From contig JBBIMK010000008.1 of assembly GCA_037444445.1 (NCBI GenBank), positions 37,497-69,496 of the forward strand: a stretch of 32,000 bases of DNA, written 5' to 3'. Below, piece after piece: positions 4,035-28,030 of the stretch (its first letter is position 1; every line of letters begins with the position of its first letter). The notes under the pieces were generated by a model. It was given only the letters and a program-made list of their open reading frames with translations. It searched no databases and had not been told where the DNA came from. Source of the DNA: a bacterium. GTDB taxonomy: Bacteria; UBP7; UBA6624; JBBIMK01. The position numbers were made by a program, and so were the translations under genes.

Positions 4035-4062
4035 TTGACAAGGACGGAGCAGGTGGTATAAT
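4035..4062 (+). promoter_or_regulatory. Near-consensus sigma70 promoter with extended -10 (TTGACA-16-TGgTATAAT) and an A/T-rich UP-like tract
   Basis: TTGACA at 4035-4040 and TATAAT at 4057-4062, preceded by TGG (the TGn extended -10). The upstream sequence is GGTTTTTATTTATGCGTATA. It points into a 540-nt tract with no convincing CDS ahead of cusC. Confidence 0.6.
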
Positions 4063-4455
4063 AAGATAGGATGAGCGCACAAAGAAAGGTTGCACTATTT
4101 TTCATCCTTAGCGTTGGGATGTCGTGGATAGGGGTAATGAATTGTTCCTCTACCAGGCTCGAATCTCACCATTCGGGAATGCCCATACCTGCCTCTTCAG
4201 TGCCCTGCCCGAAGTGCAGCCCAACCCAATTGCCTGTTCTTCACATTCTTACCTGCGTTCATCCCAATGCTTCCGTTTTCTTCCCCACTTTTGAGTCAAC
4301 GAGAGCTTTCCAGCCTGCACTGCTCTCTACGCTGAGTGATTTCGTCCATTCCCCGGCAGTATGGCATTCACCGAGTCCAGCAGGTTTTCATCTAAAACCG
4401 CCGAATCAAGTTCCACTTTATCTGTTAAACCTCTCTATTTTATCCTGATTCACTA

Positions 4456-4605: not shown

Positions 4606-5934
4606 ATGGAAAATGCGGGCAATGGATACAGGTTTGCCCGATATAAAAAAGACTGGATACCCATCCTTCTTCTTCTCTTCTGGAGTGGAATCGGATGGGC
4701 GGAGAATCCTGCCATTACACCCATAGAAGCGTTTGTCCGGGAGGCGCCGGAGAAGAACCCGGAAATTCAGGCACTCACTTATCAGTGGGAAGCGATGAAG
4801 GCACGGATTTCTCCCGCGAAAACCCTGCCTGACCCTACCATTGGCATCCGTCTGATGAATATGGGAAACCGCTTGAGCCTCGGGAAGGATATGAACTCTA
4901 TGGTGGGAATCTCTTTCTCACAGATGGTGCCGTATGCGGGCAAACTCCCCCTGATGGGCAAGATTATGGAAGAAGAAGCCAACCAAATGTTTTATATGCT
5001 CCAGGAGAAAAGGTGGATGCTCACCGCGGAAGTTAAAAAAACCTACTACTCTATCTACCACACCGACCGGATGCTGGAAATTCTTCAGGAGAATAAAACC
5101 ATCCTGGAGAATATGGAGAAGTCAATGGAAGCGATGTATCAAGTTGGGGAAGCGCTCCAGCAGGATGTCCTGAAGGCCCAGGTGTCGATTTCTAAGCTTC
5201 TGGAGCAGATGCTGGACCTCCGGAGGCAGAGAAAGGAGTTAGAGGCACGGATGAACCGTCTTCTGGGAAGAAGCGTCACGGCGCCCATCGGAAATCTCCA
5301 GGTGTCTGAGGAGATTTCCCTGCCTTACACGCTGGAGGACTTCAGAGAACTGGCGCTGAAATATTCGCCCACCCTGAGAGTGGAGGAAAAGGGAATCTCC
5401 AGGGCGGAGTATCAAGTGAAACTTGCGGAAAGGGAGTTCAAGCCGGACGCCATGTTCACATACTCTCGTTTCGCTCGTGGAAACTTTGGTCCCGCCTGGG
5501 AAGCCATGATGGAAATCACCGTGCCGTTATACAAGGAGAAAAAGCAGGCTTTTCAACTGATAGAAGCCCGGCAAAAGAAAGAGCAGGCAGAGCAGGCGCT
5601 TCAAGGGAAGAAAAACGAAATTCTCCAGGGGCTGGATGAAATGTTCGCCGCTCTTCAAACCAATGAGGAAATCTATCATCTCCTCGTGGATGGAATCATC
5701 CCACAGGCGGAACTCACTTTTCGGGCATCTATGTCCGCTTATCAAGTGGGAAAGGTGGATTTCCTCACCACCCTGGATAGTCTGATGACTCTTTACGATA
5801 TGAAGATGCGCCTTCACATGACCCTGGAGATGTTTCATAAAGACCTGTCGGATGTGGAGGCAATGATTGGAAAATCCTTAGAGATTCATTCTGGAGGTGA
5901 AACTCATGGAATCAAAACGACTCAAGAAAACTAA
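4606..5934 (+). CDS. cusC: Outer-membrane efflux protein, TolC/OMF family (CusC-like)
   Basis: 442-aa ORF with a hydrophobic N-terminal signal-like segment (WIPILLLLFWSGIGWA). Its long heptad-rich helical repeats are typical of outer-membrane factors. It overlaps the next gene (cusB-like) and is followed by cusA. It has no lipobox Cys. Confidence 0.8.
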   Translation: MENAGNGYRFARYKKDWIPILLLLFWSGIGWAENPAITPIEAFVREAPEKNPEIQALTYQWEAMKARISPAKTLPDPTIGIRLMNMGNRLSLGKDMNSMVGISFSQMVPYAGKLPLMGKIMEEEANQMFYMLQEKRWMLTAEVKKTYYSIYHTDRMLEILQENKTILENMEKSMEAMYQVGEALQQDVLKAQVSISKLLEQMLDLRRQRKELEARMNRLLGRSVTAPIGNLQVSEEISLPYTLEDFRELALKYSPTLRVEEKGISRAEYQVKLAEREFKPDAMFTYSRFARGNFGPAWEAMMEITVPLYKEKKQAFQLIEARQKKEQAEQALQGKKNEILQGLDEMFAALQTNEEIYHLLVDGIIPQAELTFRASMSAYQVGKVDFLTTLDSLMTLYDMKMRLHMTLEMFHKDLSDVEAMIGKSLEIHSGGETHGIKTTQEN

Positions 5935-7330
5935 CTGGTTTATCGGGGCGGGGTTGATACTCACCCTTGTGGGGGGATACACTGCCCATCAGCAAGGCTG
6001 GCTGACCCTGCCTTTCTTTTCCCCAGCTATTACCGCACAACCTATGGAAGGGATGAGCGGAATGGAGATGGGGAAATCAAAAGAGGAGCATGCGGGAATG
6101 GCCGGGATGGAAGGTATGGAGGAAATGGAGGAAGAGGTAGCGCCCAAACGCATTATGATTGACCCGGAAATGCAGCAGATTATCGGCGTCAGAATCCAGA
6201 AGGCCGGATATATGCCCCTCGTGAAAGAAATTCGGACGGTGGGACGAGTGGAATATGACGAAACCCGACTGAAAGCGGTTACAGTTCGGGTGATGGGCTA
6301 CATTACCAAACTTCTTGTGGATTACACAGGGAAAGAGGTAGAAGAAGGCGAACCACTTTTTACCTTTTATTCTCCTGAGCTTGTTTCTGCGCAGCAGGAA
6401 TATCTTCTGGCGTTAAAAGGGGCGAACACTCTTTCCGGTTCCTCCTATTCGGAAATCAGCCAGGGGAGCAAAACCCTGCTGGAATCTGCAAGAAAGCGTC
6501 TTCTCCTCTGGAACTTCACTGAGGAACAAATTCAATCTCTGGAAAATCGTGGAGAGCCAGAGATTGAGTCCTATGTCTATTCCCCGGTTTCTGGGACCGT
6601 GGTAGAAAAGATGGCTCTACAAGGCAAGCAGGTGATGCCCGGGGAAGATTTATACAAAATTGCAGACCTCTCTCAAGTCTGGGTTATTGCCGACCTGTAT
6701 GAGGAGGATGCTCCCCTATTGCGAGTTGGCCAGCATGCTTCCATTCAACTCACCTATTACCCTGGCAAAGCCTTCCACGGCTCTGTGGATTACATCTATC
6801 CCTATTTAGACGAGAAAACGAGAACGATCCGGGTCCGCTTCGCCTTTCGAAACCAGCGAGAAAATGCCCGTGGCGTGAGGGAGGAAACCCGGCACCTGGA
6901 ACACGAAGGAATGGAAGGGATGGAAATGCCTGGAATGCCCGGCATGAATCACACACAGCACCAGGCTCCAAATTCAACCTCTGAAAATTCTTCCGGATGG
7001 CTTCTGAAACCCGGCATGTTCACCAATGTGACAGTGAATGTGAATCTCGGGCAGTATCTTGCGATTCCGGAGGACTCTGTCATAGACACGGGCTTACGTC
7101 AGGTCGTTTTCGTGGACCTGGGGAATGGACATTTCGAGCCCCGGAATGTGGTTCTCGGGCATCGGGTGAACGGCTACTACGCCGTTCTCTCAGGCTTGAA
7201 GCCAGGAGAGCCTATTGTGACCAGCGCCAACTTCCTGCTGGATGCAGAGAGCAAAATCCGCACTGCGATGCCTGCGATGCCGGGAATGGATATGAAAGGG
7301 ATGAAGATGCCCGGACATGCAGGACATTAG
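5906..7330 (+). CDS. cusB: Efflux RND periplasmic adaptor (membrane fusion protein), CusB-like with three Met-rich tracts
   Basis: The adaptor core is recognisable (PLFTFYSPELVSAQQEYL, SPVSGTVVEKM, LYKIADLSQVWVIADLYE, LKPGMFTNVTV, IPEDSVIDTGLRQVVFV). It also has an N-terminal membrane anchor and MxxM-type tracts. I prefer the ATG at 5906 because GGAGG lies 8 nt upstream. The longest ORF starts at the GTG at 5897. Confidence 0.85.
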   Translation: MESKRLKKTNWFIGAGLILTLVGGYTAHQQGWLTLPFFSPAITAQPMEGMSGMEMGKSKEEHAGMAGMEGMEEMEEEVAPKRIMIDPEMQQIIGVRIQKAGYMPLVKEIRTVGRVEYDETRLKAVTVRVMGYITKLLVDYTGKEVEEGEPLFTFYSPELVSAQQEYLLALKGANTLSGSSYSEISQGSKTLLESARKRLLLWNFTEEQIQSLENRGEPEIESYVYSPVSGTVVEKMALQGKQVMPGEDLYKIADLSQVWVIADLYEEDAPLLRVGQHASIQLTYYPGKAFHGSVDYIYPYLDEKTRTIRVRFAFRNQRENARGVREETRHLEHEGMEGMEMPGMPGMNHTQHQAPNSTSENSSGWLLKPGMFTNVTVNVNLGQYLAIPEDSVIDTGLRQVVFVDLGNGHFEPRNVVLGHRVNGYYAVLSGLKPGEPIVTSANFLLDAESKIRTAMPAMPGMDMKGMKMPGHAGH

Positions 7331-7345
7331 AGGTGAAGGCTGGCT

Positions 7346-10300
7346 ATGATTGAACGACTAATAGACTGGTCTGCACGGAATAAATTCCTCGTTCTTCTCG
7401 CCACCTTCTTTGCCATTCTCGGAGGTATCTGGGCGATTAAGAACACTCCGCTGGATGCCATCCCCGACCTCTCCGATGTTCAGGTCATCATCTACACCGA
7501 ATGGATGGGAAGAAATCCCAGAATCATAGAGGACCAGATTACCTATCCCATTTCCACCACTATGCTCTCTGCGCCGAAAGTGAAGGCGGTTCGGGGCATT
7601 TCTGCCTTCGGCTTCTCCTTCATCTATGTCATCTTTCAGGATGGAACGGACATCTACTGGGCGAGGACTCGTGTTCTGGAATATCTGGAAAAAATCAAAG
7701 GGCGTCTCCCGCCCGGCATCACGCCAATCCTCTCCCCGGATGCCACGGGAGTGGGCTGGGTTTATATTTATGCCCTCGCAGATAAAACCGGTCAGAACGA
7801 CCTGGCACAACTTCGGACCATCCAGGACTGGTATCTGAAGTACTATCTGGAAAGCCTGCCTGATGTGGCAGAGGTGGGCACCTTTGGAGGTTTTGTTCGG
7901 GAATATCAGGTGGAAGTTGACCCGAATAAACTTCTTGCCTTCGGCATCCCGTTGAAGATGGTGATGGATGGCATCCGAATGAGCAATCTGGAGGTGGGAG
8001 GTGGAGCCATTGAACTCGCCCAGACGGAATATATGGTGCGAGGGATAGGATATGTGCAAAAAGTGGAGGACCTGAAAAATATCCCTCTGGGCACCAATAT
8101 GATGGGCACGCCGATTTATCTCAAGGATGTGGCGAGAGTGACCCTGGGACCCGATATGAGGAGAGGAGCGGCGGACCTGAATGGAGAGGGCGATGTGGTG
8201 GGAGGCATCGTTGTGATGCGGTATGGAAAAAACGCCCTGCAGGTCATTAACCGGGTGAAGGTGGCGATAGAAGAGTTTCAGAAAACCCGACTCCCCCCCG
8301 GTGTTGAAATCATCCCCGTCTACGACCGTTCCAAACTCATTCTACAATCCATTGCTACCCTTCGCCGAACCCTGATTGAAGAGTCCATCATCGTGATTCT
8401 CGTGTGTCTCATCTTTCTCTTCAGCCTGAGAAGTTCCGGCGTGGTCATCGTCACTCTACCCATTGCCGTGATTCTTTCCTTCATCCCGATGATGTATCTA
8501 CGGCTGACCTCCAACATTATGTCGCTGGGCGGGATTGCCATCGCCATCGGAGCCATGGTTGATGCGGCTATCGTGATGATTGAAAATGTCCACAAGCGGC
8601 TGGAGCATTTTGCACTGGAACATCCTGACTGGGCTCTGACATCAGAGGGTAGAGCCCAGCGAAGTCAAATCCTGATTCACGCCATGCAGGAAGTGGGAAA
8701 ACCCCTCTTCTATTCCCTTCTGGTTATCACGGTCTCCTTCCTCCCGGTATTCACCTTAGAATATCAGGAGGGGAGGCTTTTCAAGCCATTAGCCTTCACG
8801 AAAACCTTCTCCATGTTTTTTGCCTCCTTTCTTTCCATCACCCTGGTGCCTGCCATCATGGGACTATTTATTGAGAAGAAGGTCATCCCGGAGAAGAGAA
8901 ATCCCATCAGCCGATTTCTTATCAGTCTGTATAATCCTGTTGCCCGTTTTGCACTGCGCTGGCGGTTCATCACCATCACCCTCGGTCTTATGGCAACTTT
9001 TCTCGCTTACCCTGCCTATAAAAAACTGGGGAGTGAATTTATGCCACCTCTCTATGAGGGTACCCTTCTATATATGCCAATGACCACACCGGGGATTTCT
9101 ATCTACGAATCCCGGCGGGTTCTGCAAATACAGGATAAACTCCTGAAGCAATTCCCTGAGGTTGACCAGGTGCTGGGGAAAGTGGGGAGAGCCACCACAC
9201 CCACGGACCCTGCTCCCCTGCCCATGGTAGAAACCGTAGTCTCTCTCAAACCTGAACACGAATGGAGGAAAGGGCTGACCTGGGAAAAACTCTTTGACGA
9301 GATGGATAAAGAAATTCAAATCCCCGGATTCGTGAATGTGATGACCATGCCCATCAAAAATCGGGTGGATATGATCACCACGGGGATACGAACACCCGTA
9401 GGAGTGAAGGTCTTCGGGCCGAAACTGGAGGAGGTTCAGGAGATAGCGGAAGAAATTGAACGCATCATTCCACAGGTGGAAGGCACGAGAAGCGCCATTG
9501 CCGAGCGCTCTTTAGGCGGGTTTTACTTGAACATCACCCCCAGGCGGGAAGCTCTGGCTCGCTACGAACTTTCCATTATGGATGTCCAGGATGTGATAGA
9601 AATGGCAATCGGTGGAACTGTCATCTCCACCACGATTGAGGGCCGAGAACGCTACCCCATCAATATCCGGTATCCGAGGGAACTTCGGCTCTCTCCAGCC
9701 CTCCTGAAAAGGGTATTGATTCAAACGCCTATGGGCTACTCCATCCCGATTTCGCAGGTGGCGGATATAGAACTCACTCAGGGTCCGGATATGATACGAA
9801 GTGAGCGGGGACAACTCACTGGCACAGTTTATGTTGATGTGGCTGGCCGGGACATTGGCTCCTATGTGGCGGAAGCCAAAAAACTGGTGGAAGAAAAAAT
9901 CAAACTCCCTCAGGGTTATTCCATCCTCTGGAGCGGGCAATACGAGTATATGCAGAGAGTTACAGAAAAGTTAAAATATATGATTCCCCTTACCCTTTTC
10001 ATCATCTTCCTGCTGATGTATCTCAACTTCGGCTCCGTGGGGAAGACTCTCGTAGTGATGCTTTCCATTCCCTTCGCTCTCACCGGGAGTATGCTGGGAA
10101 TATATTTGATGAATTATAATCTCAGCGTGGCGGTGTGGGTGGGAATCATTGCTCTCGCCGGCGTTGCCGCTGAAACCGGCGTGGTGATGCTGGTGTATAT
10201 TGATGAAGCCTATGAACGATACAAAAAACAGGGGATGATGCGCACCCGCCAGGACCTCTCTGATGCCATCATTGAGGGAGCAGTGCAAAGGGTTCGCCCC

Positions 10301-10513
10301 AAGATGATGACCGTAATGGCTGTCATGATGGGGCTGATTCCCATCCTGTGGAGCCACGGAGCAGGTGCGGATGTGATGCGGAGAATCGCCATGCCGATGA
10401 TTGGCGGTATGGTCACTTCTACCATTCTCACTCTCTTCATCATTCCTTCCATCTTTCACATCTGGAAATCTTTTGAACTCCCTAAACAGAAGCAAACTGG
10501 AGGTGAATCCTGA
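7346..10513 (+). CDS. cusA: Heavy-metal (Cu/Ag) efflux RND inner-membrane pump, CusA family
   Basis: 1055 aa with 12-TM RND architecture and strong resemblance throughout to CusA/SilA (MIERLIDWSARNKFLV..., GVGWVYIYAL, AIGAMVDAAIVMIENVHK). The motifs LLYMP, PLPMVET and VDMITTG correspond, from my memory of E. coli CusA, to the Met573/Met623/Met672 metal-binding triad. Confidence 0.95.
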   Translation: MIERLIDWSARNKFLVLLATFFAILGGIWAIKNTPLDAIPDLSDVQVIIYTEWMGRNPRIIEDQITYPISTTMLSAPKVKAVRGISAFGFSFIYVIFQDGTDIYWARTRVLEYLEKIKGRLPPGITPILSPDATGVGWVYIYALADKTGQNDLAQLRTIQDWYLKYYLESLPDVAEVGTFGGFVREYQVEVDPNKLLAFGIPLKMVMDGIRMSNLEVGGGAIELAQTEYMVRGIGYVQKVEDLKNIPLGTNMMGTPIYLKDVARVTLGPDMRRGAADLNGEGDVVGGIVVMRYGKNALQVINRVKVAIEEFQKTRLPPGVEIIPVYDRSKLILQSIATLRRTLIEESIIVILVCLIFLFSLRSSGVVIVTLPIAVILSFIPMMYLRLTSNIMSLGGIAIAIGAMVDAAIVMIENVHKRLEHFALEHPDWALTSEGRAQRSQILIHAMQEVGKPLFYSLLVITVSFLPVFTLEYQEGRLFKPLAFTKTFSMFFASFLSITLVPAIMGLFIEKKVIPEKRNPISRFLISLYNPVARFALRWRFITITLGLMATFLAYPAYKKLGSEFMPPLYEGTLLYMPMTTPGISIYESRRVLQIQDKLLKQFPEVDQVLGKVGRATTPTDPAPLPMVETVVSLKPEHEWRKGLTWEKLFDEMDKEIQIPGFVNVMTMPIKNRVDMITTGIRTPVGVKVFGPKLEEVQEIAEEIERIIPQVEGTRSAIAERSLGGFYLNITPRREALARYELSIMDVQDVIEMAIGGTVISTTIEGRERYPINIRYPRELRLSPALLKRVLIQTPMGYSIPISQVADIELTQGPDMIRSERGQLTGTVYVDVAGRDIGSYVAEAKKLVEEKIKLPQGYSILWSGQYEYMQRVTEKLKYMIPLTLFIIFLLMYLNFGSVGKTLVVMLSIPFALTGSMLGIYLMNYNLSVAVWVGIIALAGVAAETGVVMLVYIDEAYERYKKQGMMRTRQDLSDAIIEGAVQRVRPKMMTVMAVMMGLIPILWSHGAGADVMRRIAMPMIGGMVTSTILTLFIIPSIFHIWKSFELPKQKQTGGES

Positions 10514-10746
10514 TGAAATTTTTTGACCCTGTTTGCAACGTTTTCCTGGACACGCTGGACGAAGAGTTGCAGGCCCCTCACGGCAACCACATTCACTACT
10601 TCTGCTCTCCCACCTGCCGGAAAATCTATGAGGAAGCACTGGAATACGAGGAGACCATCCGAAATCCACTGGAGTTCCATGCCGGTGGCAGGGAAAAGGA
10701 GCCATACCTTTTCATCAAGAGGGTAGATACAGGGTATGAGGCGTAG
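10513..10746 (+). CDS. Small YHS/TRASH-like protein (degenerate motif DPVCN...HYFCSPTC)
   Basis: 77-aa ORF whose ATG overlaps the cusA stop (TGATG). Its pattern, DPVC-x23-YFCSxxC-xxxY, matches the YHS domain consensus (DPVCGM...YYFCSxxC...F), but the Gly-Met after the first Cys is missing. It has no signal peptide. Confidence 0.6.
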   Translation: MKFFDPVCNVFLDTLDEELQAPHGNHIHYFCSPTCRKIYEEALEYEETIRNPLEFHAGGREKEPYLFIKRVDTGYEA

Positions 10747-10779
10747 AAGAAAAAACTGAACACCTGGAGGTGAGAAAAT

Positions 10780-11268
10780 ATGAAACTTGTATGGGCGGTC
10801 ATTCGGGAAAATAGACTACGAGAAGTTCAAAAAGCCCTGCAAAAAGAAGGCTTTACCGGGGCAACCGTAGTCCATGTTTCCGGTATGGGGGAAGAAGATT
10901 CTCATCCTCCCCTCACCCTTTTTCCCCACATCAAAATGGAAATCATCACTTCGGATAACCTGGCAGAAAAAGCAGTGGAAACGATTATGAATGCTGCCTG
11001 GACGGGCTTGCCAGGAGACGGAGGGATTGCCATCTTACCGGTGGAGAAGGTCTGGAAAATCCGACATAAGGAACGACTCATCACTCTTTTGGAAAAAGTG
11101 ATTGACCCGGTTTGCAAAATGAAGATAGAGAAAATGAAAGCAGCGGGTAAGACAGAGTTTGCAGGAACCAGTTACTACTTCTGTTCTGAAATATGCCTGT
11201 TAAAATTCCAGGAGTCTCCGGAAAAATTTCTCCGGGCAAGCAAGAGCTCTAAAGTAAAGGAGGAATAA
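10780..11268 (+). CDS. PII (GlnB/GlnK)-like domain fused to a C-terminal YHS domain
   Basis: Residues 1-105 align by eye with PII (MKLVWAVIRENRLREVQKALQKEGFTGATVVHVSGMG...IKMEIITSD...AEKAVETIMNAAWTGLPGDGGIAILPVEKVWKIR). The T-loop is shortened and has no Tyr51 equivalent. The C-terminus, IDPVCKMKIEK...TSYYFCSEICLLKFQESPEKF, is a YHS domain. A strong SD (GGAGGTGA) is present. Confidence 0.8.
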   Translation: MKLVWAVIRENRLREVQKALQKEGFTGATVVHVSGMGEEDSHPPLTLFPHIKMEIITSDNLAEKAVETIMNAAWTGLPGDGGIAILPVEKVWKIRHKERLITLLEKVIDPVCKMKIEKMKAAGKTEFAGTSYYFCSEICLLKFQESPEKFLRASKSSKVKEE

Positions 11269-11270
11269 AT

Positions 11271-11564
11271 ATGAAATTGAATCCGGCAGGATTCGCAAGC
11301 GCTCTGGGGATAACCTCAGCCATCCTTTACTTTGTGTGCGGCATCCTTGCCGCGGTCACTCCTCAGTTTCTCCTCTACATTTTCAAGACCTGGTTCCACG
11401 GGATGAATCTGGATGCACTCGTCCCTGCTGACGGACACATTTTCAATCTGACTCTGTTCATCATCGGGCTTATCACCTTCACGGCTACCGGCTGGGGCAG
11501 TGGGTGGTTGGTGGCAATTATTTACAATTTGTGGCAAAAGAAAAGCCCGGAGAAAGGAGAGTGA
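11271..11564 (+). CDS. Small integral membrane protein (2-3 TM), function unknown
   Basis: 97-aa ORF starting 2 nt after the previous stop, with an SD (GGAGGA). Hydrophobic segments: ITSAILYFVCGILAAV and LTLFIIGLITFTATGWGSGWLVAIIY. Confidence 0.6.
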   Translation: MKLNPAGFASALGITSAILYFVCGILAAVTPQFLLYIFKTWFHGMNLDALVPADGHIFNLTLFIIGLITFTATGWGSGWLVAIIYNLWQKKSPEKGE

Positions 11565-11569
11565 TAGAG

Positions 11570-11779
11570 ATGGTAATGGAAATTGACCCCGTGTGCGGTA
11601 TGAGGGTGGATACACGGATTCCTGCTGCTAAATCTGAGCATGAAGGGATTACTTATTTCTTCTGCTCCGTTGGGTGCAAGGGCATCTTTGACCAGGACCC
11701 CGACAAATACAGCCGACTATACTGGAAGAAAAGAGGGATGGATAAACCTGAATCTCCGGAGGTGGAGACTGATGGTTGA
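11570..11779 (+). CDS. YHS domain protein (canonical DPVCGM...YFFCSxGC)
   Basis: MVMEIDPVCGMRVDTRIPAAKSEHEGITYFFCSVGCKGIFDQDPDKY. I chose the ATG at 11570 because the SD AAAGGAGAG lies about 9 nt upstream. The longer ORF from 11504 overlaps the preceding gene. Confidence 0.8.
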   Translation: MVMEIDPVCGMRVDTRIPAAKSEHEGITYFFCSVGCKGIFDQDPDKYSRLYWKKRGMDKPESPEVETDG

Positions 11780-11987
11780 GAAGGACCCGGTATGCGGGAT
11801 GCCGGTAGATACAAAACGGGCAGGCAGTAGCCTTTCCTTTCAGTATAACGGAAGGACCTACTACTTTTGCTCTCACTATTGCCGGGAGCATTTTGAAGCG
11901 GACCCGGAACGATATTACCGGGGAAGGCAGACAGAGATGATGGGCCCACATAAAGAATTCAGGGAAAAAGGAGGTGAAAATGAATGA
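11772..11987 (+). CDS. YHS domain protein (second tandem copy)
   Basis: MVEKDPVCGMPVDTKRAGSSLSFQYNGRTYYFCSHYCREHFEADPERYY. The ATG at 11772 is preceded by GGAGGTGGAG and overlaps the previous gene by 8 nt (ATGGTTGA). Confidence 0.8.
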   Translation: MVEKDPVCGMPVDTKRAGSSLSFQYNGRTYYFCSHYCREHFEADPERYYRGRQTEMMGPHKEFREKGGENE

Positions 11988-12481
11988 AGGGCCGAAATTC
12001 TCTTCACTGGATTCTGGCACTGGCGTTTACAGGGCTTTTTCTCGGTGTGGCAGACGATTCTTCCTCTACGCCTCATGATGAGGGGATGATGGGCGGGATG
12101 ATGCCTATGATGCAGATGTGCCACCAGATGATGTCCCGACAGATGTCGGGAATGGGCGGCGGTATGCATCATCCTATGATGGACATGATGGGGCATGAAC
12201 CGCAACCCATGACCCCCGAGGAGCGGGAAATCGCTAAAATGATGGCGGATGCAGAGGTGAAAGAAGCCCAGCTGCACCGAATGCTTCTGGAAGAGAATGT
12301 GAATCCGGATGCCCTGAAGGGAAAGATACGAGAGATTCATGACCTTCAGGTGGAAATCCAGTTCAGGGAAATCATGACCGCTCGTGCAAAAGCATCGGCT
12401 CAGAAACCTTCCGAAAAGGGAGAAAGCAAGAGTGAGCACGAGATGCATCACATGGGCGGCATGGGCAGGATGGGGAAATAA
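11984..12481 (+). CDS. Met/His-rich periplasmic protein with a Spy/CpxP/ZraP-like helical domain
   Basis: The signal peptide is WILALAFTGLFLGVA. A tract of about 45 aa follows, containing about 17 Met plus His (EGMMGGMMPMMQMCHQMMSRQMSGMGGGMHHPMMDMMGH). Next comes a helical region like periplasmic stress/metal-sensor chaperones (MTPEEREIAKMMADAEVKEAQLHRMLLEENVNPDALKGKIREIHDLQVEIQ). The tail is HEMHHMGGMGRMGK. The start overlaps the previous stop (ATGA). Confidence 0.75.
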   Translation: MKGRNSLHWILALAFTGLFLGVADDSSSTPHDEGMMGGMMPMMQMCHQMMSRQMSGMGGGMHHPMMDMMGHEPQPMTPEEREIAKMMADAEVKEAQLHRMLLEENVNPDALKGKIREIHDLQVEIQFREIMTARAKASAQKPSEKGESKSEHEMHHMGGMGRMGK

Positions 12482-12525
12482 CGGAGGGTGAAGAGGAGGA
12501 ATTGCCCCCTTCCATCAGGAATCGC

Positions 12526-12556
12526 GGGGGGTCCTCTACCTGCTCCGGGACCCCCC
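12526..12556 (+). terminator. GC-rich hairpin in the only sizeable intergenic gap of the module (possible attenuator or weak terminator)
   Basis: GGGGGGTCC (12526-12534) pairs with GGACCCCCC (12548-12556), giving a 9-bp stem and a 13-nt loop. No U-tract follows (CCGATTCCACTTT), so it is not a classical intrinsic terminator. Confidence 0.3.
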
Positions 12557-12583
12557 CCGATTCCACTTTAAGGAGGAATGCAT

Positions 12584-13270
12584 ATGCCTACATGCGCTGT
12601 GTGCTTGATGAAAGTCTCACGCGAGGTTAAATTTCGCACAGAAATTAAGAAGCGAACCTACTATTTTTGCAGTTCCCGCTGTCTGATGCAATTTCAGAAA
12701 ACTCCGGAAAAATATTCTCCTGTGCATATACGAACACCGGCATTTGTGGGAATTCCTTCCCGGGTTCATCTCAGCCAATCCGCCTTTACAGCATTGATTT
12801 TATCCGTGGCGGAGATATTCAAAAAAGAAGCCATGGGCTACCTTCTGGGAAATTGCAAGGGCGAAGTGGTGGAGATAGACCATGCGATACCCTTTCAAAC
12901 GGGTAAAAGAGGTTATACTTACAGTGCAGTTTCTCTCCGGCGGCTGGAGTGGGTTAGAGACCTGACAGAGCGCATCCATCCAGGATTGCAGTGGATTGGA
13001 GATTATCATTCTCACCCTCAGCATGGAAATGTCCTGCGTCTTCACCTTCCCAGCATTCTGGATGTGGAAGATATGGAACCCGGGTATGTTTATTTAGTCA
13101 TTTCAGTGAACGAAGTACAAGTTTGCTTACCCTGGCGCACGAGCAGGAAGAGGGGAACTCTCGCTGGAACTCTGGGAAAATTGCGGATGGAGATTGCGGG
13201 CTACTGTCTTGATAAAGAGCAAAATTTGCGCCGTTTAGAGGTGGATGCCCCCTGGTTGAAAAGAAAATAA
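12584..13270 (+). CDS. TRASH/YHS-type zinc-ribbon domain fused to a JAB/MPN+ (JAMM) metalloprotease domain
   Basis: The N-terminus MPTCAVCLMKV...RTYYFCSSRCLMQFQKTPEKY follows C-x2-C-x21-C-x3-C. The C-terminal domain has the JAMM signature elements: KKEAMGYLLG (Glu), IGDYHSHPQ (HxH) and PSILD (S-x2-D). Spacing between HxH and S is 12 residues, against the usual 7. The ATG at 12584 lies 7 nt after AAGGAGG. The ORF also opens at 12578. Confidence 0.75.
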   Translation: MPTCAVCLMKVSREVKFRTEIKKRTYYFCSSRCLMQFQKTPEKYSPVHIRTPAFVGIPSRVHLSQSAFTALILSVAEIFKKEAMGYLLGNCKGEVVEIDHAIPFQTGKRGYTYSAVSLRRLEWVRDLTERIHPGLQWIGDYHSHPQHGNVLRLHLPSILDVEDMEPGYVYLVISVNEVQVCLPWRTSRKRGTLAGTLGKLRMEIAGYCLDKEQNLRRLEVDAPWLKRK

Positions 13271-13359
13271 AAAAAGCCCTATTTCTTTATGCTTTTTTCA
13301 CGGTAGTCCAGCCAGCACTTCTATGGGCGCACGGGGCAGGGCATCTCTCCACAGAAGAA

Positions 13360-15384
13360 ATGGCTTCGGGACTGGTGGTCGTTGGGCGCTATCAGTTTCT
13401 GCTGGAAAAAGAAGCCACGCCACTCACCCGGGGAAAGACATCATACATTACCGTTCGCATCTTTGATACTTATGCGAAGGCTCTGCTGAAGGGGAAGCGA
13501 GTGCTTATGGCTATCAAACTTCCTCAAGCAGCGATTCCCCCCGGCCAAATCCCGGTACCCACGCTTATACCACCTTCTTCTCAGCACTCTTCTACAGGAA
13601 TAGCAGTGGACAGTCCTGTTTCCTGGACCCCAGAGGGCAACCCGGATGTATCCGACCTACTGCCCACAGAAGAAACTGCGGAGGGAGGGCATTATCGGAT
13701 AAAATTCACTCCTGAAACTTCCGGGGTTCATCTATTGAAACTGGCACTGTTTGTGGACGATGCATCCTCACCTCTTCTAATAGAATTCCCTCTCCAGGTA
13801 AAAAACCCGGCGTTCACGCTCACACGAATCGTATTTTTTACGCTTCTCCTGCTATTCCTCACCGTTATTTCTCTGAGCGTTTTCTCTCTCCGCAGAAGAT
13901 ATGGCTCCTCCGATTCACAGTCTTTGAATCTACTGGAAATTCCATGGTTAAACCGGTTTATTCGCTGGAGATATTTTCAAACAGTTTTTCAAGTTCCCCT
14001 GCTGTTTTTGTTGATTCTCATCATCTTTGCAGGTTTATATGATGCACCTGATGGGAGCAAAAATTTCGCCACGATTCTCACCTGGACAGTGTGGTGGGCG
14101 GGGATTATCTTTACCTTCGTTCTACTGGGAAGAGTCTGGTGTTTTATGTGTCCTGTGGGAGGGCTGGCGGATTGGACGGGGAAATGGGCTCAGCCCCGTC
14201 GCCTTCTACCCAAACTCCTTCGTTCTTTGTGGATTCCCACCGTTCTATTCCTTTTTCTTACCTGGCTGGATGGAGCGGTGGGCATCGTAAACAATCCGCG
14301 CTTGACCGCCTGGGTCCTGATGTCTATTGCCGGGCTTGCAATTCTCATTTCTCTGCTGTTTGCCCGTAGGACTTTTTGCCGGTATATCTGCCCGATTGGA
14401 GGAATGATTGGGTTATATTCTATGTTTTCCCCGGTAGAGTTGAGGGTGAAATCTCATGAAATCTGTCGTTCACACAACCCGAAAACCTGCTATCTGGGTT
14501 CTCCAGATGGGGAAGGATGCCCGATGTTTGAATATCCAGCGGTGATGAATCGCAACAATTACTGTAACTTTTGCGGGGAGTGCGTCAAAACCTGCTCGCC
14601 GAACAATCTTGTCTTGAGATTTCGCCCGTTCGGGACAGACCTTTTTACTCTGGTAAATCCCCGTCTGGATGAGGCATTTTTTGCCCTTACATTAACAGGA
14701 GTAAGCCTGGTGGCGGTAGGGCATATGATTGCTCCCTGGCATTCCTGGATGCTGGGGCTTTCCAGGCTCATCGGATTGGGAAGGCTGGGTATTACCAGCG
14801 AGAAAACCTTAACTGTCATCGGTTTCACCATCACCCTGTTCAGTATATCTGTGGTGATTTTGCCTGCTCTGGTTTACGGTGCAGTGCTCTGGCTTCAAAA
14901 GTTTTCTGTGGGGCAACCCATTCTGGCCGACCGAGGGAACGACGGCAGGGCAGAAAAAGTGGCTCCACATCAAATTTTCAGCCGTTTTGCTTACGCCTTC
15001 ATTCCTGTGGGATTATCCATGCATCTGGCTCACAATATCCAGCATTTATTAACTGAAGGAGCCGTTATCATCCCCGCCACACAAAAATTCCTGAACAACT
15101 ATACTTTCTTTAATCTCGGCATTTCCAACTGGCAGGCTTATTCTTTCCCTCATTCCCCCTATATCACCTGGCTTCAAATCACACTCGTCCTCATATTTTT
15201 GCCCTTTTCTCTGCGAATACTTGATAGGGTGTGGCATCAGTATTTTTCTCCATCAGCCCGATTTCAGTGGGCAATGGCTCCCTTACTCCTTTTGGTTCTC
15301 GTTCTGGTGTGGCTGAATCTCTTCCTTATCCAGCAAGATATGTCTGCCCGGCACACAACCCTGTTGACAGCCATCGCCCGATGA
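13360..15384 (+). CDS. Membrane polyferredoxin (NapH/MauN/CcoG-like 4Fe-4S protein) with an N-terminal periplasmic beta-rich domain
   Basis: It has multiple TM helices, two CxxCP motifs at helix ends (VWCFMCPVGGLADW and TFCRYICPIGGMIG) and a ferredoxin motif (CNFCGECVKTCSP). A further Cys group is CRSHNPKTCYLGSPDGEGCP. The coordinates are from the first ATG. The in-frame upstream sequence (from 13252) encodes a signal-peptide-like KKIKKALFLYAFFTVVQPALLWAHG, so the real start is probably upstream and non-canonical. Confidence 0.75.
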   Translation: MASGLVVVGRYQFLLEKEATPLTRGKTSYITVRIFDTYAKALLKGKRVLMAIKLPQAAIPPGQIPVPTLIPPSSQHSSTGIAVDSPVSWTPEGNPDVSDLLPTEETAEGGHYRIKFTPETSGVHLLKLALFVDDASSPLLIEFPLQVKNPAFTLTRIVFFTLLLLFLTVISLSVFSLRRRYGSSDSQSLNLLEIPWLNRFIRWRYFQTVFQVPLLFLLILIIFAGLYDAPDGSKNFATILTWTVWWAGIIFTFVLLGRVWCFMCPVGGLADWTGKWAQPRRLLPKLLRSLWIPTVLFLFLTWLDGAVGIVNNPRLTAWVLMSIAGLAILISLLFARRTFCRYICPIGGMIGLYSMFSPVELRVKSHEICRSHNPKTCYLGSPDGEGCPMFEYPAVMNRNNYCNFCGECVKTCSPNNLVLRFRPFGTDLFTLVNPRLDEAFFALTLTGVSLVAVGHMIAPWHSWMLGLSRLIGLGRLGITSEKTLTVIGFTITLFSISVVILPALVYGAVLWLQKFSVGQPILADRGNDGRAEKVAPHQIFSRFAYAFIPVGLSMHLAHNIQHLLTEGAVIIPATQKFLNNYTFFNLGISNWQAYSFPHSPYITWLQITLVLIFLPFSLRILDRVWHQYFSPSARFQWAMAPLLLLVLVLVWLNLFLIQQDMSARHTTLLTAIAR

Positions 15385-15439
15385 ATAAACTGGAAATGAA
15401 TGCTTCAAAGGAAATACAGCAATGGAGAGGTGAGGTGAG

Positions 15440-15748
15440 ATGTGTAGATTCATCTGGACGGTAATTTTAGTGGTAACTCTGAGTTCAGCAGGGTTAGCCC
15501 ATACAGGAGAGAAACACGAGAAGTTGCAGGAGTCACCCCCATCTGCGGAAGTTACAACGCCAGAGAAAGAAATGAACCAGGGAGTGGAACACGAGATGAT
15601 GGAAGGAGCATCAGAAACCCGGCCTGCTCCTCAGGTGCCTTTGAATCCGGCGAGAGATGTGGTTTTGCTTGTCATATTCACCGCTGGTGGAATCTGGCTG
15701 GCGATTCGCAACTACCAGCATTTCTCTAAGGGGGCTGCTTCCCGATGA
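15440..15748 (+). CDS. Small exported/anchored protein (signal peptide, acidic His/Met-containing region, C-terminal TM)
   Basis: 102 aa with an SD (GAGGTGAGGTGAG). The N-terminal signal is FIWTVILVVTLSSAGLA followed by HTGEKHEK. The C-terminal TM is VVLLVIFTAGGIWLAI. The stop overlaps the cytochrome b start (ATGA). Confidence 0.55.
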   Translation: MCRFIWTVILVVTLSSAGLAHTGEKHEKLQESPPSAEVTTPEKEMNQGVEHEMMEGASETRPAPQVPLNPARDVVLLVIFTAGGIWLAIRNYQHFSKGAASR

Positions 15749-16740
15749 CCACCTGGCGAGAAAGATTCGGTCTTCACGCGCTGGCGTACCCGGTTCCATC
15801 ACACAGTCACCGATTAGACTATGCCCTCGGAGCTATCGCTCTCTCGGGCTTTCTGATTCTCATTCTCACGGGCATCTGGCTGGGGCTTTTATATCAGGTC
15901 GGTGCCACCAGTGCCTATGAAAGTGTGGAGGCTCTTCAGGGTCTGGACCGGTGGGTGCGAAACCTACATTACTGGTCCGCCCACTTCACCTATCTTACGG
16001 TGCTTCTTCATGTGGTTCGGGTAGGGATTACAGGGGCCTATCGCACTCCGAGAGAAGGAATCTGGTGGTTGGGAGTTTTTCTCCTCGCTACCGTCTCTGC
16101 TATATTCCTCACCGGAACCATCATCAAGTGGGACCAGGAAGGATATGAAGCCTACGCCCATCTGGAAGAAGGCTTCGCATACGCCGGACCTCTTGCCAAT
16201 TTCTTGAAAAGCAGATTTACTGGTTCTGTCGCATTTTCCTCTCTCTTCTTCACCCATACTTCCCTTCTCCCGATTTTAGTTCTTCTTCTGATTGCAGGAC
16301 ATTTACTTCTGATAAAAATCCACGGGATTTCTGAATTACCTGGCGAGACCTCTTCCACTGCACGCATTCCTTTTACGCAGGTTATGAAAACCATTTCCCT
16401 TTATACAGGTGGATTTTTTATTCTGCTGGTGATACTTGCCACTTTCCTCCCAGCCCCATTGGGGCCTAACTTCGTAGAAGGGTTTGAGGTTACTAAACCT
16501 CCGTGGCCCTTCCTCTGGATTTATGCCCTGGAGAACTGGCTTGGAATGATGGGTATGGTATGGGGACCTGCCCTGCTCTTCCTCGGATTATTGGCTATGC
16601 CACTGCTGGACCGGGGGAAAAATCGGCGAGCATGGATTACCCTATTCCTCCTTGTCCTTCTACTTCTGATTGCCCTTGGTTTATATGCTGCCCTCTCTGT
16701 TCCCGTTCCTCATCTGGAAATGCAAACAGGTGAATCCTGA
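15745..16740 (+). CDS. Cytochrome b (b6-type His spacing) with a fused subunit-IV-like C-terminal domain
   Basis: Helix B is NLHYWSAHFTYLTVLLH (H-x13-H). Helix D is FTHTSLLPILVLLLIAGH (H-x14-H, the b6/Firmicutes-type spacing). The C-terminal KPPWPFLWIYALENWLG occupies the position of the PEWY Qo motif. No Rieske or cytochrome c gene is adjacent. Confidence 0.8.
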   Translation: MTTWRERFGLHALAYPVPSHSHRLDYALGAIALSGFLILILTGIWLGLLYQVGATSAYESVEALQGLDRWVRNLHYWSAHFTYLTVLLHVVRVGITGAYRTPREGIWWLGVFLLATVSAIFLTGTIIKWDQEGYEAYAHLEEGFAYAGPLANFLKSRFTGSVAFSSLFFTHTSLLPILVLLLIAGHLLLIKIHGISELPGETSSTARIPFTQVMKTISLYTGGFFILLVILATFLPAPLGPNFVEGFEVTKPPWPFLWIYALENWLGMMGMVWGPALLFLGLLAMPLLDRGKNRRAWITLFLLVLLLLIALGLYAALSVPVPHLEMQTGES

Positions 16741-16799
16741 TGAAAGAAAACGAACCTAATGTGGAAGAAAACGAAAATCTTCAGAGGAGGTAGAGTGAA

Positions 16800-17258
16800 A
16801 TGTCACAGAAGAAAGGCTCAACCAGGGAAGCAGAGAAAGCCAGGTCTTTATCGCGAGTGATAGGGGTGACTGGTTTTCTCGCCCTGGGGCTTGGACTCTT
16901 TTTCACTGTCCGCCTATTTCTTACGGGGAAACCGGTGGAGATAAAAACCAATGGAGAAGCTCCACCTTACAGGCGAGTGGAGACACGCCCTGTTCTTCCC
17001 TCTTCTCTTTTCACTGGTGCTGTGGCAGAAGCCTATCAGGCTGCCCACGATATGCCCGATTTCATTGACCAGTTTTACTGCTACTGCCAGTGCAAGGAAT
17101 ATCACGGGCACAAAACTCTTCTTACCTGTTTTACTGATAAGCACGCCGCTAATTGCGACATTTGTTTATATCAAGCCCTCACTGCTGTCCAGATGAGCAA
17201 AGAAGGAAAGTCTGCGGATGCCATTCGCCATTTCTTCTCCTCCCGTTTCGCCCAGTAA
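16800..17258 (+). CDS. Membrane-anchored CYCxC-motif (PCYCGC-like) Cys/His-rich protein, putative metal-binding
   Basis: The N-terminal TM anchor is VIGVTGFLALGLGLFFTV. The extracytoplasmic domain contains FYCYCQCKEYHGHKTLLTCFTDKHAANCDICLYQAL. As I recall, this resembles the PCYCGC/CYCXC family of unknown function. The SD AGAGGAGG lies 8 nt upstream of the start. Confidence 0.7.
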   Translation: MSQKKGSTREAEKARSLSRVIGVTGFLALGLGLFFTVRLFLTGKPVEIKTNGEAPPYRRVETRPVLPSSLFTGAVAEAYQAAHDMPDFIDQFYCYCQCKEYHGHKTLLTCFTDKHAANCDICLYQALTAVQMSKEGKSADAIRHFFSSRFAQ

Positions 17259-22861: not shown

Positions 22862-24436
22862 TTAAATGAAGAGGCCCAGTCTACCGAAATAGAAAGAGAG
22901 AGAAGAGTTATATATGTTCGTTAAAAGGCCGGGGAGAACGCCAAAAAGAACGATAAAAAAACTGGGGATGGCAAGGCTGAGCACCTCACGACGGTCCATA
23001 TCTGTCAGATGTTTCCAGGTTTCATTCAGCGGTCCCATGAACATCCGTTGAAGCATCCAGAGAGTATAGCCGGCGGTGATGACGATAGCCGGTGCGGCGC
23101 AGATTGCCAGCAGTCGGAAGGTATAGATTCCGTTCCAGAGGTAGAAGGTGTTTCTGAAGGCCCCCAGATAAGCCAGGGCTTCGCCCCAGAAGCCAGAGAG
23201 CCCGGGCAGAGCCAGGTTTGCCATCCCCACGAGGCCGAAGAAGGCAAAATAAGTGCTCATAACGGCGCCCAGGCCTCCAAACTCGCTCATAATTCGGGTA
23301 TGTGCTCGGTCATAAATCACGCCAGTCAGCAAGAAGAGTGCTCCGGAAACGAATCCATGACTGACCATCACAAACATGCCGGCAGAGGCACCTTCCGGTG
23401 TCTGGGTTGCCAACCCGAATAGCACATATCCCATATGGCTTACACTTGCCATGGCAATCAGAGTTTTCAAATCTGCCTGCGCCATGGCTACCAGAGCGGC
23501 ATACACGATGGAAACCACACCGATGAGGGCAATGAGAATCGCCAGATGCTTCACCGCATCTGGAAAGGTCGGGAAGACAAAACGATAAAACCCATATCCC
23601 CCCGTCTTCAGGAGCAATCCCGCCAGGATAACGCTGATAGGCGTAGGGGCTTCCACATGGGCATCCGGTAGCCAGGTATGAAAAGGCACAATGGGAACTT
23701 TTACACCAAAGCCCAGCAGAAAAAGGAAAAACGCAGTAACCTGGAGAGAAAGGGGTAGTTGATGAGTGGTTCGCGCCAGGACGAACGAATTGAAGGTGAG
23801 TTCTTCCGGCTTCAATCCGCTATGCCAGTAAATGAGCAGAATGCCGAAGAGAAGGGCAATACTTCCCGCGAGTGTAAACAGGAAAAATTTAATAGCGGCA
23901 TAGATTCGCCTCGGCCCTCCCCAGATGCCAATGAGAAAATACATAGGCACCAGCATCAATTCCCACATAATAAAGAAGAGAAAATAATCCATAGATATAA
24001 ACACTCCGATAATGCTCATCTCCAGTAAAAGGAATAAGATGGAATATTCCTTCACCCGGAAATGGATGCTCCAGGAGCCGAGAGCGGCGGCGACGAAAAG
24101 AATGGCAGTGAGCATCACCATAGCCAGGCTGATGCCATCCACCTGCACATGATAATAAGCGCCAATCTGAGGAAACCAGGGAATCATCAGCCCGAATTCT
24201 CTTTGAAATCCTCCCTTCATATAGTCATACAGCGTCATCATATAGCCCACTTCTCCGGCGACTACGAGAGTGACCAGAAGGGTGAAGGTTCGGATGGCTT
24301 TCTCTTTTGCGGGAGGAAAGAAAGTCAGGAGGATAAGACCGATGAGAGGAGTAAAAAGAATCAGGGTAGGTAAATTGGTTATCATCGCACGAAGAATCTC
24401 CACAGCGGGCAGTAAGGTTACCTGTGCTTCTTCCAT
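22862..24436 (-). CDS. nuoM: NADH-quinone oxidoreductase (complex I-like) subunit M
   Basis: 524 aa and polytopic. The signature WELMLVPMYFLIGIWGGPRRIYAAIKFFLFTLAGS and HTWLPDAHVEAPT are typical of NuoM/ND4. Confidence 0.9.
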   Translation of the reverse strand: MEEAQVTLLPAVEILRAMITNLPTLILFTPLIGLILLTFFPPAKEKAIRTFTLLVTLVVAGEVGYMMTLYDYMKGGFQREFGLMIPWFPQIGAYYHVQVDGISLAMVMLTAILFVAAALGSWSIHFRVKEYSILFLLLEMSIIGVFISMDYFLFFIMWELMLVPMYFLIGIWGGPRRIYAAIKFFLFTLAGSIALLFGILLIYWHSGLKPEELTFNSFVLARTTHQLPLSLQVTAFFLFLLGFGVKVPIVPFHTWLPDAHVEAPTPISVILAGLLLKTGGYGFYRFVFPTFPDAVKHLAILIALIGVVSIVYAALVAMAQADLKTLIAMASVSHMGYVLFGLATQTPEGASAGMFVMVSHGFVSGALFLLTGVIYDRAHTRIMSEFGGLGAVMSTYFAFFGLVGMANLALPGLSGFWGEALAYLGAFRNTFYLWNGIYTFRLLAICAAPAIVITAGYTLWMLQRMFMGPLNETWKHLTDMDRREVLSLAIPSFFIVLFGVLPGLLTNIYNSSLSFYFGRLGLFI

Positions 24437-24443
24437 TCTCTAT

Positions 24444-28014: not shown

Positions 28015-28030
28015 TGATTTCACTCCTTAA

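Follow-up and report, generated by a model that had tools for sequence, protein, structure and literature searches.

Two widespread, uncharacterised redox modules with copper-linked gene neighbourhoods at the end of a CusCBA-type efflux operon

Genes at the locus

We analysed a stretch of 32 kilobases (kb) of the bacterial contig JBBIMK010000008.1 (assembly GCA_037444445.1), hereafter the window, with emphasis on four genes at the 3' end of a CusCBA-type operon that is rich in YHS/TRASH and Met/His genes. The four genes, named G1 to G4, encode an exported polyferredoxin, a small anchored protein, a cytochrome b and a CYCXC protein. All of them lie on the plus strand, separated by 55, -4 and 59 nucleotides (nt), and the overlap between G2 and G3 is ATGA (Table 1). 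A previous sequence-only reading had described this quartet as a self-contained membrane redox unit inside a copper-efflux operon. As argued below, the four-gene complex is better replaced by two widespread, uncharacterised copper-linked redox modules, G1 with G4 and G2 with G3, whose functions are proposed from sequence and gene neighbourhood.

Table 1. Features of the window discussed in the text (positions in the window; aa, amino acids; TM, transmembrane).
Feature	Position	Strand	Remarks
G1, exported polyferredoxin	13252/13360..15384	+	710 aa from CTG 13252; 674 aa from ATG 13360
G1 signal peptide	13252..13329	+	predicted cleavage between LWA and HG; first mature residue His
G1 periplasmic immunoglobulin-like (YtkA-like) domain, about residues 40-185	13369..13806	+	beta strands in the AlphaFold2 model; about 150 aa
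G1 NapH/CcoG-type core: TM helices with CFMCP and CRYICP, cytoplasmic ferredoxin-like domain (predicted)	13816..14646	+	invariant columns
G1 C-terminal five-helix membrane domain, His/Met-lined	14647..15384	+	no Pfam or NCBIfam family
Promoter-like site TTGACA-16-TAAACT (10 of 12)	15364..15391	+	just upstream of G2
G2, exported C-terminally anchored 102-aa protein	15440..15748	+	signal peptide, C-terminal TM helix
G3, seven-helix dihaem cytochrome b	15745..16740	+	b6-like N-terminal half; KPPWPFLW in place of PEWY
G4, N-terminally anchored periplasmic CYCXC protein (predicted)	16800..17258	+	CYCQC 17079-17093; CDIC 17154-17165
Outer membrane efflux protein (OEP), CusB-like and CusA-type heavy-metal RND efflux genes	4606..10513	+	context; co-directional with G1-G4
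Run of small metal-handling genes: zf-FCS/TRASH-like, P-II+YHS, DUF5676, two YHS, Met/His-rich, YHS+JAB	10513..13270	+	
P-II+YHS fusion	10780-11268	+	
165-aa protein	11984-12481	+	26 Met and 11 His
YHS+JAB/MPN fusion	12578-13270	+	

For the family surveys, 80 genomic loci carrying G1 homologues were fetched and searched with all proteins of the window. For G3, 80 metagenomic loci were fetched, which brought the family to 84 loci in all. In the scans of the collections, 557 genome stretches proved to be related to G1 and 549 metagenome stretches to G3.

The G1 polyferredoxin

The in-frame sequence upstream of the first ATG of G1 (13360) reads KKALFLYAFFTVVQPALLWA followed by HG and constitutes a signal peptide, which was found at the same place in all 29 aligned homologues. 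Because this upstream peptide is conserved, the CTG at 13252 was taken as the most likely start. It lies seven bases 3' of GAGGTGGA, a Shine-Dalgarno sequence at 13238-13245, and overlaps the end of the YHS-JAB gene. The sequence-only reading had already placed the start at this position. The public 674-aa call is probably truncated at the N-terminus and omits the conserved signal peptide. A junction of the A-HG type occurs in about 13 of 30 aligned homologues.

The AlphaFold2 model of G1 (pLDDT 80, pTM 0.78) presents, in order, the signal peptide, an immunoglobulin (Ig)-like beta domain at about residues 40-185 and ten membrane helices, with a ferredoxin-like domain (395-465) between helices 5 and 6. 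Pfam YtkA matched the N-terminal domain in six of the 30 family members. A Foldseek search with the Ig domain gave weak matches to Ig-like proteins, including the copper-binding CrdA, FtrA-P19 and PmoD (E 0.02-0.1). The core had been credited with two CxxCP motifs; two Cys-Pro motifs and CNFCGECVKTCSP are indeed present, and one of the two, CFMCP, has the CxxCP form, whereas the other, CRYICP, is CxxxCP. The cysteines of these three motifs are invariant in the 30 sequences, as are C405, C413 and C423. The ferredoxin-like domain holds seven of the invariant cysteines (C405, C413, C423, C438, C441, C444 and C448), which would be enough for up to two [4Fe-4S] clusters. The second cluster would take C405, C413, C423 and a fourth ligand; the conserved cysteines number seven and not eight. 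If the N-terminus lies outside, the order of the helices predicts a cytoplasmic location for the two Cys motifs as well as for the ferredoxin-like domain, in agreement with the topology reported for NapH.

Fer4_5 was detected in 30 of 30 family members, and more than 500 full-length homologues were recovered at 35-45% identity. Against the curated models, G1 scored 35.7 bits with NapH/MauN (TIGR02163, cut-off 213.05) and 17.6 bits with NosR (NF046105, cut-off 1000), far below the cut-off in both cases. No CcoG model was matched in the NCBIfam search (E up to 0.01), in which the hits were confined to NapH/MauN, NapH and NosR, all of them far short of their cut-offs. FixG_C had no match in any of the 30 family members, and Pfam gave no FMN_bind match in the family. 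A tblastn alignment of G1 to E. coli yccM showed 27.6% identity over residues 372-494. The relationship to the NapH/MauN/CcoG superfamily, proposed earlier from the sequence, is upheld. By curated models and defining domains, G1 is a distinct architecture within this superfamily and not a CcoG, NapH/MauN or NosR protein.

The C-terminal membrane domain of G1 contains the invariant residues M492, W496, H591, H594, N595, H598 and E602 and a PMxxRH tail (M697, R700, H701). Exhaustive HMMER searching yielded 109 representatives of the domain, which sits C-terminal to a Fer4_5 core in seven of ten proteins scanned. One of these seven, P0222, has the core and the C-terminal domain separated by an inserted GltD-like NAD(P)H flavoprotein. 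Sequence and fold searches of the PDB gave no solved structure matching the membrane part of G1, only the weak matches of the Ig domain. Among the relatives with other architectures (P0222, P0072 and P0204), P0072 has the C-terminal domain fused to a cation diffusion facilitator (CDF) metal transporter, and the domain also exists in short, apparently stand-alone forms of about 250 aa.

The G4 CYCXC protein

G4 exceeded the cut-offs of both PF13798 PCYCGC (45.8 bits, cut-off 25) and NF041379 CYCXC (seleno)protein (106.1 bits, cut-off 90). As a word-indexed search for homologues gave only four matches, the G4 alignment was built from 45 homologues taken from the fetched loci. Across these 46 sequences, C94, C96, C98, H104, C110 and H115 are kept in at least 98%. 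At the position of Cys119, the first cysteine of C119-D-I-C122, 32 of the 45 homologues have TGA, and the stop there is always TGA. The reading frame after it is conserved, continuing xxC-x-EAL, and a hairpin follows 17-21 nt after the TGA, with stem changes that compensate between lineages, as for a bacterial selenocysteine insertion sequence (SECIS) element. On these matches and codons, G4 is the Cys form of the selenoprotein family OS_HP4, which is listed as a UxxC selenoprotein of unassigned function (PMC13188914). PCYCGC proteins are likewise called unassigned in a 2026 lipoproteome paper.

G4 was marked as redox-active because its CxxC is UxxC, with selenocysteine (Sec), in most relatives; the alternation of Sec and Cys at this site argues for redox chemistry over a purely structural role. 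By the positive-inside rule, the Cys/His-rich domain would be located in the periplasm. The structural model is confident for the C-terminal 90 residues alone, which are helical, and it places the UxxC/CxxC motif at the N-terminus of a helix. Of the CYCXC genes beside G1 homologues (L001-L080), most are of the Sec form, for example at L030 9390-9887 and L071 8535-8843; the window equivalent of the motif with the TGA is 17154-17165.

G2 and the orphan cytochrome b G3

G2 has no Pfam or NCBIfam match. Its predicted cleavage between GLA and HTGE would leave the mature N-terminus HTGEKHEK, and the protein contains a HEMMEG stretch. G3 reached the cut-offs of PF00033 and PF13631 (65.1 and 63.9 bits, cut-offs about 27). 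Its haem-ligand histidines, H75 and H89 in helix B and H171 and H186 in helix D, are invariant in 29 sequences. The residues specific to the family are E132, H139, K251, P252, E263 and H323, of which E132, H139, E263 and H323 are invariant on the periplasmic side; some members also have His-rich C-terminal tails. A profile of the 29 members matched cytochrome b6 and bc1 cytochrome b in the PDB over seven helices (E 1e-51 to 1e-30).

No Rieske-like or CxxCH pattern was present in any open reading frame (ORF) of the window. A Rieske protein was detected in two of the 84 family loci and was never adjacent to the cytochrome b, and CxxCH was detected in two of 84. The lack of a Rieske or cytochrome c partner, first noted at the single locus, thus holds for the family of this cytochrome b. 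From the haem ligands, profile matches and gene neighbours, G3 is a genuine cytochrome b but does not belong to a complex of the bc1/b6f type.

Immediately upstream of the cytochrome b, and often overlapping it, at least 30 of 73 loci have a gene for a protein that resembles G2 in being exported and anchored at its C-terminus. The predicted cleavage of these partners is mostly between Ala and His, in the forms AHGEG, AHKGK, AHEEE and AHTGE. Since sequence similarity between partner groups is mostly undetectable, the likeness of G2 to other partners is architectural. In CopC and YcnI, Cu(II) is bound at 'histidine brace' sites to which a mature N-terminal His contributes as ligand, a parallel that serves here only as a lead for comparison. 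Separately, 20 loci among L086-L165 (for example L106 2446-3000) encode an exported Ig-like protein of about 200 aa within about 60 nt 3' of the orphan cytochrome b. This protein has an A/G-HG junction and a C-terminal anchor and belongs to no Pfam family.

Arrangement of the genes in relatives

Of the 80 G1 loci, 41 contained G4. It shared the strand of G1 in every case and mostly lay 0-300 nt away, with a median gap of about 110 nt when upstream and 290 nt when downstream. When only loci with at least 1.5 kb on both sides were counted, G4 was present in 29 of 52. None of the 80 G1 loci contained G2, and none had a G3-type cytochrome b adjacent to G1. A cytochrome b was located 4-6 kb from G1 in eight of the 80 loci, all from Rokubacteria/NC10. 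The one inspected, in L030, was rejected as a G3 relative, being part of a common type of bc complex that includes a Rieske protein and is accompanied by multihaem cytochromes.

The closest relatives of the two halves carry them separately. The closest G1 relative (L081/L168, 72% G1 identity) has the same kind of operon in the order CusCBA, YHS, a 183-aa gene, YHS, G1, G4 (6 nt later) and the same convergent Usp/GT2 gene. G1 is directly followed by G4 in this relative, and G2 and G3 are absent. The closest G3 relative (L082, 82% G3 identity), which is nearer to the window than L081/L168, has the same operon and downstream neighbours, with flanking proteins 63-95% identical to those of the window and a G2 orthologue 72% identical to G2. 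Here YHS-JAB is directly followed by G2, G3 and the 5' part of G4. The segment corresponding to 13266-15420 of the window, which contains G1, is cleanly absent, and the flanks align at 81-84% nucleotide identity around this 2.1-kb indel. A run of N (scaffold gap) at about 11210-11340 of L082 falls within the CYCXC gene, so that L082 allows no conclusion on the absence of the His-phosphatase and Usp/GT2 genes. As a result, three arrangements share one genomic slot, namely G1-G4, G2-G3-G4 and G1-G2-G3-G4, and among the 80 G1 loci and 84 G3 loci the four-gene order was found solely in the species of the window.

These arrangements bear directly on the idea that the four products form one complex in this organism, in which the polyferredoxin and the cytochrome b cooperate and G2 and G4 are periplasmic subunits. 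The co-directional genes and their short spacing speak for it, a strain of 97% identity shows the gene order of the window for G2-G3-G4 at least, and G4, which occurs with G1 in some genomes and with the cytochrome b in others, could bridge both. However, close relatives carry either half alone in the same slot, no other G1 locus of the 80 has an adjacent G3-type cytochrome b, and a promoter-like site lies between G1 and G2. The last point is only suggestive, since the number of promoter-like sites in the region is not above that of shuffled sequences. Taken together, a single complex appears improbable.

Of the sequence-only reading, the four gene descriptions agree with the ORFs, motifs and family matches, and the copper-efflux setting is borne out by the OEP, CusB-like, CusA and YHS/TRASH genes upstream. 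The self-contained unit and the pairing of the cytochrome b with a polyferredoxin did not survive the comparison with other genomes, and the missing synteny of the quartet, which that reading had itself named as a ground for refutation, led us to reject the four-gene unit and retain the pairs. Very probably, the conserved pairs are module A (G1+G4) and module B (G2+G3). The assignment of G4 to module A in the window is not exclusive, given that G4 also occurs with the cytochrome b.

A protein of about 200 aa upstream of G1 in 20 loci was considered as FMN_bind and dropped, as it had no Pfam match at E 0.01 or better. A homologue on a Deinococcus ficus plasmid had an uninformative context.

Operon setting in the window

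CusA reached the TIGR00914 cut-off (1154 bits against 701). The motif in its fourth TM helix is GIAIAIGAMVDAAIV, which we take to be of the Cu/Ag type from the Nies classification and E. coli CusA, and Met residues are present at 577, 627 and 676. The five YHS/TRASH-type genes of the 10513-13270 run are consecutive. A DUF5676 membrane protein is also part of this accessory run.

The promoter and terminator counts of the scan do not exceed those of shuffles, and therefore the scan does not fix the boundaries of the operon; for the four genes themselves chance is no concern, because homology supports them. A perfect sigma-70 consensus (TTGACA, 16 nt, TG, TATAAT) at 4035-4062 ends 9 bases 5' of ORF 4071-4448, the product of which has 125 aa and no family match. 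Transcription of the operon may start from this site. A GET3/ArsA-type ATPase (2742-3806; L082 569-1624) immediately 5' of the efflux operon is kept in both relatives and weakly matches a 'tail anchor-mediating ATPase' model. A single terminal helix anchors several proteins of the efflux operon to the membrane. On the minus strand further downstream, some ORFs in 22862-31616 correspond, with equal sizes, to complex I (nuo) genes that are annotated in L082 and L167, two loci syntenic with the window.

The window encodes no quinol-oxidising bc complex and no cco or fix genes, the neighbours being Cus, YHS and nuo genes.

Copper-type neighbours across the two families

Near G1, P1B ATPases with YHS or HMBD domains were found in 17 of the 80 loci, small YtkA-like proteins in 10 and CusCBA in 5-7. 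A copper-type neighbour was present in 29 of the 59 G1 loci of at least 9 kb. Near G3, a heavy-metal P1B ATPase, often with YHS or HMBD, was present in 26-31 of 84 loci, and CsoR, HMA and cupredoxin genes and two-component systems recur. Restricting the count to G3 loci of at least 9 kb gave a copper-type neighbour in 19 of 28. For each of the two families, the recurrent neighbours of this type comprise P1B ATPases and CsoR, YtkA-like, HMA, cupredoxin or CusCBA genes. A Meiothermus locus has its G3-family cytochrome b inside an island of CopA, cupredoxin, HMA and CsoR genes. The copper link, which had been suggested from the window, is therefore stronger than a single locus could reveal.

A different setting was observed in NC10. 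In L030 (8540-19701), one co-directional cluster comprises a P19-like protein, a Sec-form CYCXC, a G1 homologue and an EB_dh-like haem protein, together with c-type cytochromes of the multihaem kind and a set of Rieske, cytochrome b and cytochrome c genes. A cytochrome b at a distance of 4-6 kb from G1 is also present in seven other loci of Rokubacteria/Methylomirabilota. Clusters of the L030 type are a respiratory, not an efflux, setting for module A.

Such clusters are one reason to consider that the modules are unrelated to copper, serving for example respiratory or chalcogen/mercury redox, and merely hitch-hike in metal islands. The best NCBIfam match of G3 points the same way, as ExtP (NF040969) belongs to a selenite/tellurite reduction operon; the match reached 108.9 bits against a cut-off of 290 and covers the N-terminal half alone. 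In addition, soft metals such as Hg are bound by both Sec and Cys. On the other side, copper-type neighbours recur across several phyla for both families, and the window contains no mer, ars-reductase or chalcogen genes. We regard a role without copper as very unlikely.

Proposed function

The two modules may be accessory redox devices that work independently of each other and have been added to an operon for Cu(I)/Ag(I) efflux, with electrons flowing outward to the periplasm. We consider the evidence for this proposal evenly balanced. For the broader notion of a copper-related periplasmic redox role, the balance tips slightly in favour, whereas the specific version, Cu(II) reduction feeding Cus, is doubtful. 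Genomic context and motifs are best read as pointing to periplasm-directed reduction of copper or of thiols/selenols.

In the proposed scheme, both modules would carry electrons outward to periplasmic acceptors. Module A would take them from cytoplasmic Fe-S or NAD(P)H-type donors, as suggested by the cytoplasmic Fe-S domain and by the NAD(P)H-flavoprotein fusion in P0222, and module B would take them from the quinol pool via the cytochrome b. The electrons would end up either on copper bound at N-terminal-His or Cys/Sec sites or on the Cys/Sec pairs. Such reduction would turn Cu(II) into Cu(I), which is what CusCBA exports, and would keep copper-binding thiols reduced under copper stress. A quinol donor and the production of Cu(I) for CusCBA, both put forward in the sequence-only reading, would be plausible. 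We counted in favour of outward flow the gene order of five marine loci, in which CYCXC, a TlpA-like thioredoxin, a G2-like protein and the cytochrome b follow one another. A precedent exists in CcoG, a Cu(II)-specific reductase with two [4Fe-4S] clusters, the overproduction of which raises copper tolerance (PMC7558416).

Several findings weigh against the outward-flow, copper-related proposal. The copper link comes exclusively from gene neighbourhood and motifs, and about half of the G1 loci have no recognisable copper gene within the sequence examined. In NC10/Rokubacteria, G1-G4 adjoins the respiratory bc and multihaem cluster instead of efflux genes. The pairs themselves are not uniform: about half of the G1 loci lack G4, G4 changes partner between genomes, and G2 has no detectable sequence homology to most other partners. 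Within G1, no metal ligand is kept across the whole Ig domain, the N-terminal His being limited to the fraction of homologues given above. With their spacing of i, i+3, i+7, the histidines of the C-terminal domain do not resemble a bis-His dihaem site.

Another explanation leaves copper out as the electron acceptor. The modules would then be envelope thiol/selenol-disulfide reductases, like DsbD/CcdA with TlpA or CcmH, that repair copper-misoxidised cysteines or keep copper chaperones reduced. Copper catalyses non-native disulfides in the periplasm. The placement of the G4 UxxC/CxxC at a helix N-terminus would suit such an enzyme, and TlpA-like thioredoxins are adjacent in six G1 loci and six G3 loci. 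The best Foldseek match of the G4 model is also the periplasmic CxxC domain of CcmH, but this match is not significant (E 1.6, TM 0.51). Moreover, the CYCxC motif, accompanied by conserved His, and the histidines at the N-termini of G1 and G2 resemble metal sites more than pure thiol relays, and CcoG, the closest characterised relative, reduces Cu(II) directly (PMC7558416). We judge this thiol/selenol explanation possible, though unlikely.

For module B, the direction could also be reversed. An oxygen-independent Cu(I) oxidase would pass electrons from G2-bound Cu(I) through the haems to quinone and would replace a multicopper oxidase, none of which was found among the window ORFs scanned. G3 is of the quinone-reactive cytochrome b type and its family conserves the periplasmic-side His and Glu, both of which would fit. 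However, producing Cu(II) beside CusCBA would be counter-productive, since the operon exports Cu(I), and the thermodynamics with low-potential menaquinone would be poor. This reversal seems highly improbable.

Returning to outward electron flow, a more detailed scheme can be drawn that unites the two modules, and we offer it as speculative and rather unlikely in full. Module B would be a novel type of quinol:copper oxidoreductase with a remodelled Qo site, at which copper on the N-terminal His of the partner and the family-specific periplasmic His/Glu would replace the Rieske cluster as acceptor. Module A would relay electrons across the membrane from Fe-S to selenol, with the CYCXC selenoprotein acting as periplasmic cupric or disulfide reductase. 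If both fed CYCXC interchangeably, this would explain the existence of relatives with G1-G4, G2-G3-G4 or all four genes.

Significance of the modules

Bacterial cupric reductases are almost unknown, and CcoG has been called the first specific one, acting via two Fe-S clusters (PMC7558416, a 2020 review). How periplasmic Cu(II) becomes Cu(I) for Cus pumps and chaperones is an open point, for which the G1 and G3 families provide concrete and widespread candidates. Named examples of the two families come from Nitrospirota, Nitrospinota, Methylomirabilota, Desulfobacterota, Deinococcota and Gemmatimonadota. No published description of the G1+G4 or G2+G3 pairing was found in the literature. For the CYCXC/OS_HP4 selenoprotein family, there is now a partner that can be tested and a first functional (physiological) context. 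Bioenergetics would take an interest in a bc-type cytochrome b that operates with neither Rieske nor cytochrome c, and the three natural arrangements in near-identical slots are a ready-made comparative experiment.

Comparison with known systems

G1 resembles CcoG/FixG (Rhodobacter capsulatus) and YccM in being a membrane polyferredoxin with membrane-proximal Fer4_5 Cys motifs. With CcoG/FixG it further has in common a cytoplasmic Cys-rich ferredoxin-like domain (predicted in G1), one periplasmic Ig-like domain and a link to copper handling, and YccM, with which G1 aligns weakly in E. coli, is a short CcoG/FixG homologue. The differences are in architecture and context. The Ig-like domain of G1 is N-terminal behind the signal peptide and YtkA-like, whereas that of CcoG is the C-terminal FixG_C. 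G1 adds the five-helix His/Met-lined C-terminal domain, and its first ferredoxin motif is atypical (C-x7-C-x9-C). The ccoNOQP/ccoGHIS context of CcoG is missing around G1, the usual partner of which is the CYCXC (seleno)protein.

NapH, MauN and NosR-NirI have the CX2-3CP and CxxCxxCxxxCP motifs in common with G1 and give weak model matches. In contrast to these systems, G1 is not accompanied by NapG/NapC, FMN_bind or nos/nir/mau genes, and the terminal domains differ.

In the CYCXC/OS_HP4 family (PF13798, NF041379), G4 passes both cut-offs and represents the Cys form, with its CDIC aligned to the UxxC. A link of this family to polyferredoxin, cytochrome b or copper loci is absent from the reviews consulted, PMC13188914 among them.

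Compared with the cytochrome b of bc1/b6f complexes, G3 has the four haem-ligand His, the WDQ segment and a PEWY-equivalent loop, and seven of eight helices align. It departs from them in having no Rieske, cytochrome c/f or subunit IV partner, in the window and across the family. Relative to b6, PPWP preceded by an invariant Lys stands for PEWY, and Ala stands for the haem-cn Cys. The partner of G3 is instead a small tail-anchored protein with a predicted His at its mature N-terminus.

Finally, the haem-b metal reductases that act at the outer face, eukaryotic Dcytb/Fre/Steap and bacterial PepSY_TM/FoxB types (PMC7558416; see also PMC13038864), offer an analogy to module B alone, as transmembrane dihaem b proteins that could deliver electrons to metal on the outer side. 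The folds are unrelated, G3 being a bc-type cytochrome b, and the donor of G3 would be quinol at a Qi/Qo-type site, not ascorbate or NADPH.

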